DNA from: Promethearchaeota archaeon
Lineage (GTDB): Archaea > Asgardarchaeota > Hermodarchaeia > Hermodarchaeales > Hermodarchaeaceae
Assembly: GCA_048938295.1 (NCBI GenBank)
Contig: JBHLMI010000055.1
Span: 1 to 6,268 of the forward strand
Length of the DNA stretch: 6,268 nt
Direction of reading: 5' to 3'
Shown here: positions 1,202 to 1,438 of the stretch, in pieces
Layout of the letters: every line of letters starts with the position of its first letter
Numbering within the stretch: the stretch's first letter is position 1
Program-made: the position numbers and the translations under genes
Notes under the pieces: model-generated
What the model was told of the DNA's origin: nothing
Database searches by the model: none
Seen by the model: the letters and a program-made list of their open reading frames with translations, nothing else

Positions 1202-1328
1202 ACCGCCCGTCGCTCCACCCGAGTCAAGTTTGGATGAGCCGCTGTCCGCTCGTCGTCTTCGGATGACGTGTGGGCGGTGTCGAATCGGGGCTCGGCAAGG
1301 GGGGAGAAGTCGTAACAAGGTAGCCGTA

Positions 1329-1387
1329 ACCAGCTCAGCTACGGTTGAGCTGTTTAAATCCCGCTTACGAGCGGGCCCTTGCGGTAA
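1329..1387 (+). other. Archaeal BHB-like mini-intron I3 (59 nt) at E. coli 1513/1514
   Basis: Central helix GCCG (1323-1326)/CGGT (1382-1385) with bulge positions TA|A (1327-1329) and AA|G (1386-1388); ligation gives GCCGTA|GGGGAA. The body has two UACG-capped hairpins (1331-1352, 9 bp; 1360-1375, 6 bp). Flanking helices are weak (only C1330-G1381). Confidence 0.82.
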
Positions 1388-1393
1388 GGGGAA
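1388..1393 (+). rRNA. 6-nt 16S micro-exon GGGGAA (E. coli 1514-1519, apex of helix 45)
   Basis: This is the only GGGGAA between GCCGTA (1323-1328) and CCTGCGG (1426-1432), and both neighbouring BHB registers cut exactly at its edges. Confidence 0.82.
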
Positions 1394-1425
1394 AAGGTTG
1401 GAGATACGGTCTCTGACCCCCCTAC
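1394..1425 (+). other. Archaeal BHB-like mini-intron I4 (32 nt) at E. coli 1519/1520
   Basis: Central helix GGGG (1388-1391)/CCCT (1420-1423), bulges AA|A (1392-1394) and AC|C (1424-1426), then an A-C mismatch and a 9-bp stem GGTTGGAGA (1396-1404)/TCTCTGACC (1410-1418). Ligation gives GGGGAA|CCTGCGG. Boundaries could shift by 1 nt because the G and C runs allow other registers. Confidence 0.8.
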
Positions 1426-1438
1426 CCTGCGGCTGGAT

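Follow-up and report, generated by a model that had tools for sequence, protein, structure and literature searches.

In fungi and algae, group I introns are found at the SSU rRNA sites 1506, 1512, and 1516. For archaeal 16S rRNA genes, 13 intron loci have been compiled by Jay and Inskeep (2015), none of which lies in helix 45, and short (<50 nt) hairpin-forming BHB introns are known from these genes (PMC4496867). Neighboring introns are mentioned in the same source with reference to earlier work: Pog.S1205, a hairpin without an ORF, and Pog.S1213 (I-PogI) of Pyrobaculum oguniense are 8 nt apart, and the 16S loci 901 and 908 of Thermoproteales are 7 nt apart (PMC4496867, citing Nakayama 2003). 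The 1205/1213 neighbors are co-converted by I-PogI (PMC4496867). Within the Asgard archaea, non-canonical and multiple tRNA introns have been described for Freyarchaeia and Atabeyarchaeia, and the passages of that description that contain the word "intron" deal with tRNA introns only (PMC11291895). [quoted passage not shown] Neither archaeal introns in helix 45 nor introns in Hermodarchaeota turned up in full-text searches of the literature.

The 16S rRNA gene of the Hermodarchaeia archaeon analyzed here very probably contains two separate ORF-less BHB introns of the relaxed HBh' type, at the sites 1513 and 1519, which would be spliced by EndA and RtcB. The stretch of 6,268 nt under study (the window) is the complete contig C48 of the MAG G000 (2.5 Mb, 91.6% complete). 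The contig begins inside the 16S rRNA gene, the 3' part of which is located at 1-1446 on the plus strand (Rfam RF01959, 506.6 bits) and is the sole SSU match in the G000 assembly. The exons in the window (1-129, 746-1168, 1202-1328, 1388-1393, and 1426-1446, all on the plus strand) were joined in silico, and the product aligns end to end with the intron-less 16S rRNA of Odinarchaeum. As had been stated in the initial annotation and can be read directly from the sequence, the hexamer GGGGAA occurs a single time, at 1388-1393; position 1328 is the last of GTAGCCGTA, and 1426 the first of CCTGCGGCTGGATCACCTCCT. In the alignment, the 97 nt of 1329-1425 (59 + 6 + 32) stand against the 6 nt GGGGAA of intron-less relatives. 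No single deletion rebuilds the helix 45 consensus, the removal of both 1329-1387 and 1394-1425 is needed. By homology, the edges of the first insert can equally well be placed at 1329-1387 or at 1328-1386, due to a 1-nt A/A ambiguity. The insertion sites follow nucleotides that correspond to A1513 (intron 1) and A1519 (intron 2) when numbered by the E. coli 3' end. The 6-nt exon at 1388-1393 (plus strand) corresponds to E. coli G1514-A1519 and is the same in every sequence, with or without introns; the annotated content of this exon, helix 45 nucleotides including the adenines targeted by KsgA, is supported. The 3' exon (1426-1446, plus strand) comprises the 3' strand of helix 45 and the anti-Shine-Dalgarno tail and is 100% identical in relatives. 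Inserts of this type break primer sites at the 3'-end of the 16S rRNA gene and mislead rRNA annotation. For example, the archaeal SSU model of Rfam reaches the end of the gene, with helix 45 misaligned onto the first intron hairpin. Downstream of the 16S rRNA gene, no 23S rRNA gene is present within the remaining window (1447-6268), which contains, on the minus strand, an ORF for a protein of 419 aa without a Pfam family (1603-2862) and an ORF for a NosD/beta-helix protein of 922 aa (3070-5838).

The BHB register was taken from tRNA introns, in which the exon end consists of a 4-nt helix strand and two bulge nucleotides, and the intron end likewise. Intron 1 (1329-1387, plus strand, 59 nt) has no ORF. 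Its central helix H1 is formed by the exon strand GCCG (1323-1326, plus strand), which is the 5' strand of helix 45 in the mature rRNA, and CGGU at 1382-1385; all four pairs are formed, and the exon strand is invariant in five sequences. The 5' bulge UA|A (1327-1329, plus strand) contains the predicted cut after 1328, the position from which the DNA is missing in the congeneric genome G006, and the 3' bulge AA|G is located at 1386-1388 on the plus strand. The inner helix is reduced to the single pair C1330-G1381, followed by two hairpins with UACG loops (1331-1339/1344-1352 and 1360-1365/1370-1375, plus strand) in a three-way junction, for which coaxial stacking is assumed. Intron 2 (1394-1425, plus strand) is a hairpin intron of 32 nt, the stem of which is formed by 1395/1396-1405 with 1409-1418/1419 (plus strand). 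Its central helix H2 joins GGGG (1388-1391) and CCCU (1420-1423, plus strand) with 4/4 pairs in G000, one pair is broken in the metagenome contig L031 and in the Freyarchaeia genome G129. The bulges are AA|A (A1392, A1393, A1394) and AC|C (1424-1426), both on the plus strand. In G000, the inner helix has 10 bp after an A.C mismatch (1395/1419) beside the bulge, in G014 and G006 it is a clean helix of 10-11 bp with an A-U pair at the mismatch position. Cleavage is predicted at UA|A, AA|G, AA|A, and AC|C and would restore GTAGCCGTA-GGGGAA-CCTGCGG exactly.

Two further introns of the same gene share the register with cuts 2 nt 3' of the 4-bp helix at both junctions. One is a BHB intron of 616 nt (130-745, plus strand) with a complete central helix (4/4) and an inner helix of 11 bp. 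It carries an ORF at 181-729, the product of which (182 aa) matches no Pfam family. Homologs of 53-91% identity are full-length in eight of the nine matching metagenome clusters, the ninth being a partial sequence of 115 aa, with LIPLIEFEF as a conserved motif. A C-terminal winged helix of the ArsR/MarR type is seen in the AF2 model (pLDDT 81), the N-terminal part of which gave only weak I-CreI-like matches (E ~0.01). The protein may be a very divergent homing endonuclease of the LAGLIDADG-plus-wHTH kind. The other is a hairpin BHB intron of 33 nt at the E. coli 1391 site (1169-1201, plus strand; central helix 4/4, inner helix 8 bp), and inserts of 29-32 nt are found at the same site in G014, G006, G016, and L039. 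The 33-nt intron sits within the universal 1392-1406 primer region. A contiguous outer helix is absent from all four introns of the gene, and therefore all of them are of the relaxed HBh' kind.

Four out of four pairs are expected by chance with a probability of about (6/16)^4, i.e., 2% per junction, or about 4% for intron 1, for which two registers are possible. Helices of 4 bp are frequent, with 219 such position pairs within 1300-1450, and therefore the support comes from the coincidence of the helix with the edges fixed by homology, and not from the helix itself. Several other arrangements were rejected. The register 1327|1328 for intron 1 leaves only one of four pairs in the central helix. 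For intron 1, an inner helix of 1332-1333 with 1378-1379 was also dismissed, because a change from A-U to C-G at 1332/1351 in L046 backs the 9-bp hairpin. The pairing of exon 1321-1328 with intron 1340-1347 in the cmscan alignment, a "decoy helix 45", is not kept in L043, and its UACG segment is a hairpin loop. For intron 2, the register GGGG with CCCC (1419-1422) of the MFE fold would insert a C (G000) or a G (G006) into the invariant loop. A BHB that joins 1328 to 1425 has no central helix; because no BHB helix pairs intron 1's 5' site with intron 2's 3' site, there is no structural route to skipping of the hexamer. No intron family of Rfam matched the window, and the inserts show no group I-like fold. 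A search of the G000 genome for paralogs of intron 1, intron 2, and the 33-nt intron returned only chance matches of up to 19 nt. A genome-wide scan for mini-BHBs of hairpin form, defined by a 4-bp helix, a 3-nt bulge, and a stem of 8 bp or more, gave 382 matches compared to 397 in the reversed-sequence control, and is uninformative, as there is no enrichment.

The first comparison covered 41 relatives, which were searched and aligned. All four occupancy states, namely both introns, only intron 1, only intron 2, and neither, were found in independent assemblies from several studies, so that the genome search suggested by the initial annotation, for inserts at 1513 or 1519 alone or together, was successful for each state. 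Both introns are present in G000, in G014, which belongs to the same genus and stems from a different study (91% identity), and in the metagenome sequences L031/L039, L046, and L032. Only intron 2 is present in G006 (Ca. Hermodarchaeum yapensis, same genus), which lacks exactly 1329-1387 (or 1328-1386), and in G129, a complete chromosome of Freyarchaeia with an insert of 32 nt. An insert solely at 1513 is found in L043 (63 nt, homologous to intron 1) and in L036 (66 nt, unrelated). Neither intron is present in G016, a member of the same family, in Odinarchaeum, and in other Asgard genomes, which read GTAGCCGTA GGGGAA CCTGCGG. A pattern search in 400 Asgard genomes detected inserts between these flanks only in G000, G014, G006, and G129, and when each GTDB species was represented by one genome, an exact-pattern scan returned the same genomes and one bacterial false positive (L028). 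Scanning of metagenomes for the first insert revealed three further contigs with both inserts (L031, which equals L039 over this region, L046, and L032, which equals G014); 12 of the 18 metagenome matches were bacterial 16S rRNA or unrelated DNA and were discarded. The same architecture was recovered in a second sample, at 80% of sampled words. The unrelated insert of L036, an AT-rich archaeal 16S rRNA gene of another lineage, is itself AT-rich and, worked out by hand, is a canonical HBh' intron with the same register, a complete central helix (4/4), an inner helix of 10 bp, and the same bulges. Each unit is thus present or absent at the proposed edges, and therefore the two are separate elements and not an assembly artefact. 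The sizes of 59 and 32 nt that had been predicted hold, with edges fixed by presence and absence.

The two helix 45 sites are part of a larger set. Among Hermodarchaeia sequences with 90-97% exon identity, occupancy varies at no fewer than seven sites within the 3' half of the 16S rRNA (E. coli numbering). These are ~915 (~690 nt in G006 and L039), ~960 (616 nt in G000), ~1383 (30 nt in L043 and L046), 1391 (29-33 nt in G000, G014, G006, G016, and L039), 1513 (intron 1, 59-63 nt in G000, G014, L031/L039, L046, and L043), 1519 (intron 2, 32 nt in G000, G014, L031/L039, L046, and G006), and ~1531 (30 nt in L043 and a long insert in G005). The ~690-nt insert of G006 (L026) and L039 lies in the GAAACTTAAAGGAATTGGCGG region, the equivalent of window positions 60-68, and is not found in G000; the 616-nt intron of G000 is missing in G006 (L026) and L039. 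In L043 (minus strand), the 30-nt insert at ~1531 follows CTGGA just 5' of the anti-Shine-Dalgarno sequence TCACCTCC and leaves an exon of 18 nt, and a 30-nt insert after CCTGCTCCTT (~1383), common to L043 and L046, is present in L043 in place of the 1391 intron. L036 (818-1113) has a second insert of about 100 nt after AAGTCGTAA and an apparent exon of 13 nt (CAAGGTAGCCGTA); the sequence reads ...CCGACAAACAAGGTAGCCGTA, and the upstream exon edge is only approximate. In the congeneric G005 (L019:1480-1530), the 3' tail of the 16S rRNA, ATCACCTCCTAAG, is preceded by sequence unlike rRNA, which suggests a long insert near site 1530. The patchy distribution of intron 1 and intron 2 within one genus and family, and their dispensability, fit selfish or neutral insertions, and elements of this kind that come and go sporadically are a better description of the introns than a regulatory device.

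The aligned sequences also reveal conservation of the structures. For intron 1 (five sequences), 91% of the cells are paired in the proposed structure, compared to 22-41% when the structure is slid. Most of the unpaired cells stem from L043, the 3' arm of which is off by one column. Five pairs have changes on both sides, all of them in the two hairpins, and H1 as well as C1330-G1381 are invariant. For intron 2 (six sequences), 90% of the cells are paired compared to 40-70% when slid, and three pairs are compensatory. In H2, 22 of 24 cells are paired, with the lowest conservation at the first pair (G1388). None of the aligned sequences deviates in the hexamer or in either exon flank. Because the exons are invariant and the introns have changed in a compensatory manner, both the exons and the intron folds are kept by selection, which argues against a pseudogene. 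Comparative data, geometry, and covariation all agree with the two separate BHB mini-introns of the initial annotation. In MFE folds of the full region, H1 loses out to the native lower stem of helix 45, and forcing of both BHBs costs about 11 kcal/mol. H1 is part of the folding optimum only for a transcript that ends at 1387. This modeling suggests that H1 might form once intron 1 has been transcribed, and that the native lower stem of helix 45 would compete later.

RNA data are available for the large intron of the gene. In the metatranscriptome X18, a contig of 615 nt consists of 490-745 followed by 130-488, a circular permutation of the 616-nt intron that originates from a relative with about 94% identity. 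Its junction, from 745 to 130, coincides with the two cuts that were predicted. The contig is as expected of a 616-nt intron that has been excised and circularized by RtcB, and genomic DNA would not give it. Therefore, the circular junction validates the register in this lineage for the 616-nt intron. In four low-share metatranscriptomes, skips from 1328 to 1426-1428 with GGGGAA-like fillers and sides of 20-26 nt were detected. The sequence is conserved and any archaeal 16S rRNA gives such skips from 1328 to 1426, and they are therefore uninformative for splicing; the junctions seen in these four data sets are not specific to this organism, and window positions 1351-1400 are uncovered. Circles of 59 and 32 nt would escape assembly, because they are below normal library sizes. 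One contig of the wetland metatranscriptome X14 matches 1429-1496 exactly, so the 3' trailer, or else DNA of this organism, is present in that sample. This contig stops 3 nt inside the 3' exon, which may represent a branch of the assembly graph.

G000 encodes the enzymes that would be required. Two EndA paralogs are present, an alpha subunit of 186 aa (104 bits) and a beta-like subunit of 196 aa (70 bits). For the alpha subunit, a match to the heterotetramer of Aeropyrum pernix was obtained, namely to its catalytic subunit (E = 2e-45). Tyr, His, and Lys are kept in the alpha subunit, and the broad-specificity lysine is represented by K41, which is aligned to A. pernix K44 in the crenarchaeal specific loop. 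The beta-like subunit has a Thr in place of the catalytic His of Methanocaldococcus jannaschii and matches structural subunits, too. [quoted passage not shown] RtcB (567 bits) and KsgA/Dim1 (202 bits) are also encoded. ARAGORN called only 35 tRNAs in G000, 21 of which contain an intron, although not every call is reliable. The genome would accordingly be rich in introns, and additional disrupted tRNA genes would have been missed.

In the proposed route, a heterotetrameric EndA would recognize each intron via the 4-bp helix between the exon and the 3'-end of the intron (GCCG-CGGU and GGGG-CCCU) and would cut 2 nt 3' of each helix on both strands. RtcB would then join the exons, giving the helix 45 sequence GUAGCCGUA-GGGGAA-CCUGCGGCUGG, and would circularize the introns of 59 and 32 nt. 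The predicted spliced product, from which 1329-1387 and 1394-1425 are removed, reads GTAGCCGTAGGGGAACCTGCGG, and methylation of helix 45 by KsgA would follow after both ligations. All bases of the hexamer are part of splice motifs: G1388 is the third base of the 3' bulge of intron 1 and at the same time forms the first pair of H2, G1389-G1391 are in H2, and A1392-A1393 are bulge bases. The two motifs abut, with G1388 common to both, and only A1386-A1387 lie between the helices. Cutting of both introns prior to ligation would release the free hexamer, and therefore removal of the introns is most likely sequential, to which steric exclusion between two enzyme tetramers probably contributes. The half-spliced intermediates exist as natural genes, since the state with only intron 2 is that of G006 and the state with only intron 1 is that of L043.

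Three other explanations have to be weighed against two selfish or neutral introns. The initial annotation had suggested a maturation checkpoint, in which the introns are kept to delay the formation of helix 45 and of the KsgA site until two splicing events have occurred, and which would thus gate late 30S assembly. The logical dependence is real, because there is no GGAA loop until both ligations have taken place. Moreover, G000 encodes KsgA, the six exon bases are all engaged in splice motifs, and the arrangement is kept in four double-intron sequences. However, the congeneric G006 lacks intron 1, L043 lacks intron 2, G016 and most Asgard genomes lack both, and the at least seven variably occupied sites among close relatives are what drifting insertions would give. 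The action of KsgA in Haloferax is a late one and follows the steps of EndA and the ligase (PMC10351888). With EndA acting early and KsgA late, splicing is unlikely to be rate-limiting for the action of KsgA, and taken together with the patchy distribution of dispensable introns this speaks against a checkpoint, which we regard as improbable. It is equally doubtful that the abutting motifs fix the order of excision, that the ordered creation of the helix 45 loop times or proof-reads KsgA/Dim1 action and the final 30S maturation, and that exon-skipped or half-spliced 16S rRNA provides a sink into which defective particles are diverted.

Large expansion segments are a known feature of Asgard rRNAs, and the 97-nt insert folds stably (z = -3.7), as would be in line with an insert that is retained in the mature 16S rRNA as an Asgard-type expansion of helix 45. 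Yet such an insert would split the universally conserved tetraloop while leaving GGGGAA intact between two units that are independently present or absent, both units end in BHB geometry, and relatives with 91-97% exon identity do without them. An rRNA expansion segment is an extra helix that extends a variable helix; here, the insert interrupts an invariant tetraloop. Retention is therefore very improbable. The lowest probability of all is given to an artefact or a dead gene, be it through mis-assembly, through a chimera, or as an rRNA pseudogene in decay. G000 is a MAG, and the contig, which begins within the 16S rRNA gene, holds the only SSU match of the assembly; but the same architecture was also recovered from G014, which stems from another study, from three JGI metagenome contigs, and from the second sample, the exons are perfectly conserved while the introns change in a compensatory manner, and this is the sole 16S rRNA gene found in a genome that is 91.6% complete. 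The assembly artefact that had been named as a possible refutation is thus excluded by independent assemblies with the same edges. Two separate BHB introns, spliced by EndA and RtcB, remain the preferred reading.

This reading means that protein-spliced introns can settle in the most conserved loop of the SSU rRNA, at adenines that are methylated in nearly all life, and that EndA and RtcB must be able to handle an exon made solely of splice-motif bases. The series of alleles within a genus and family, with none, either, or both of the introns, is a ready set of substrates for studies of splicing order and fidelity. Given at least seven variable 16S sites and the many introns in tRNAs, gain and loss of BHB introns seem to be ongoing in the Hermodarchaeia and Freyarchaeia lineages, and this turnover bears on ideas about the spread of introns in relatives of eukaryotes.

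Among the known systems, the group I introns of fungi and algae cluster in the same helix 45 region of the SSU rRNA. However, those are self-splicing ribozymes in eukaryotes, while the inserts described here have only 32-59 nt. The neighboring introns of Thermoproteales are similar in several respects: in both cases, two protein-spliced 16S introns enclose an exon with a single-digit number of nucleotides, at least one of them is a short ORF-less hairpin, and each site has its own BHB. In contrast to these neighbors, the exon has 6 nt, both introns are ORF-less, and every base of the exon is part of a splice motif. In addition, the sites 1513 and 1519 are outside of the 13 loci, and the host is a mesophilic-looking Asgard archaeon. 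Introns of 59 and 32 nt have no room for a homing endonuclease ORF, and an adjacent homing endonuclease for co-conversion, as described for Pyrobaculum, is missing, the nearest intron ORF being located about 600 bp upstream. The novelty suggested in the initial annotation for the 6-nt exon has to be qualified, since exons of 7-8 nt between 16S introns have been published for Thermoproteales (PMC4496867). Intron 2 and the 33-nt intron at 1391 resemble the short hairpin BHB introns, as they consist of one hairpin, a 4-bp helix, and two bulges, whereas intron 1, with two hairpins and a three-way junction, has no continuous inner helix. The tRNA introns of Freyarchaeia and Atabeyarchaeia and the substrates of PMC5829648 share with the helix 45 introns the enzyme type (judged by sequence) and an intron-rich lineage, and the Freyarchaeia chromosome of PMC11291895 itself carries an intron at 1519 (G129). 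The relaxed HBh'/BHL substrates (PMC5829648) have the same relaxed motif, with one well-formed bulge and no outer helix; unlike for the tRNA introns, the substrate here is an rRNA. The new features are the sites 1513 and 1519, the Asgard host, the 6-nt exon, which is the shortest that we found reported for 16S rRNA, and the full natural series of alleles, and the helix 45 pair represents an elegant extreme case within an established class of archaeal introns and not a new mechanism.
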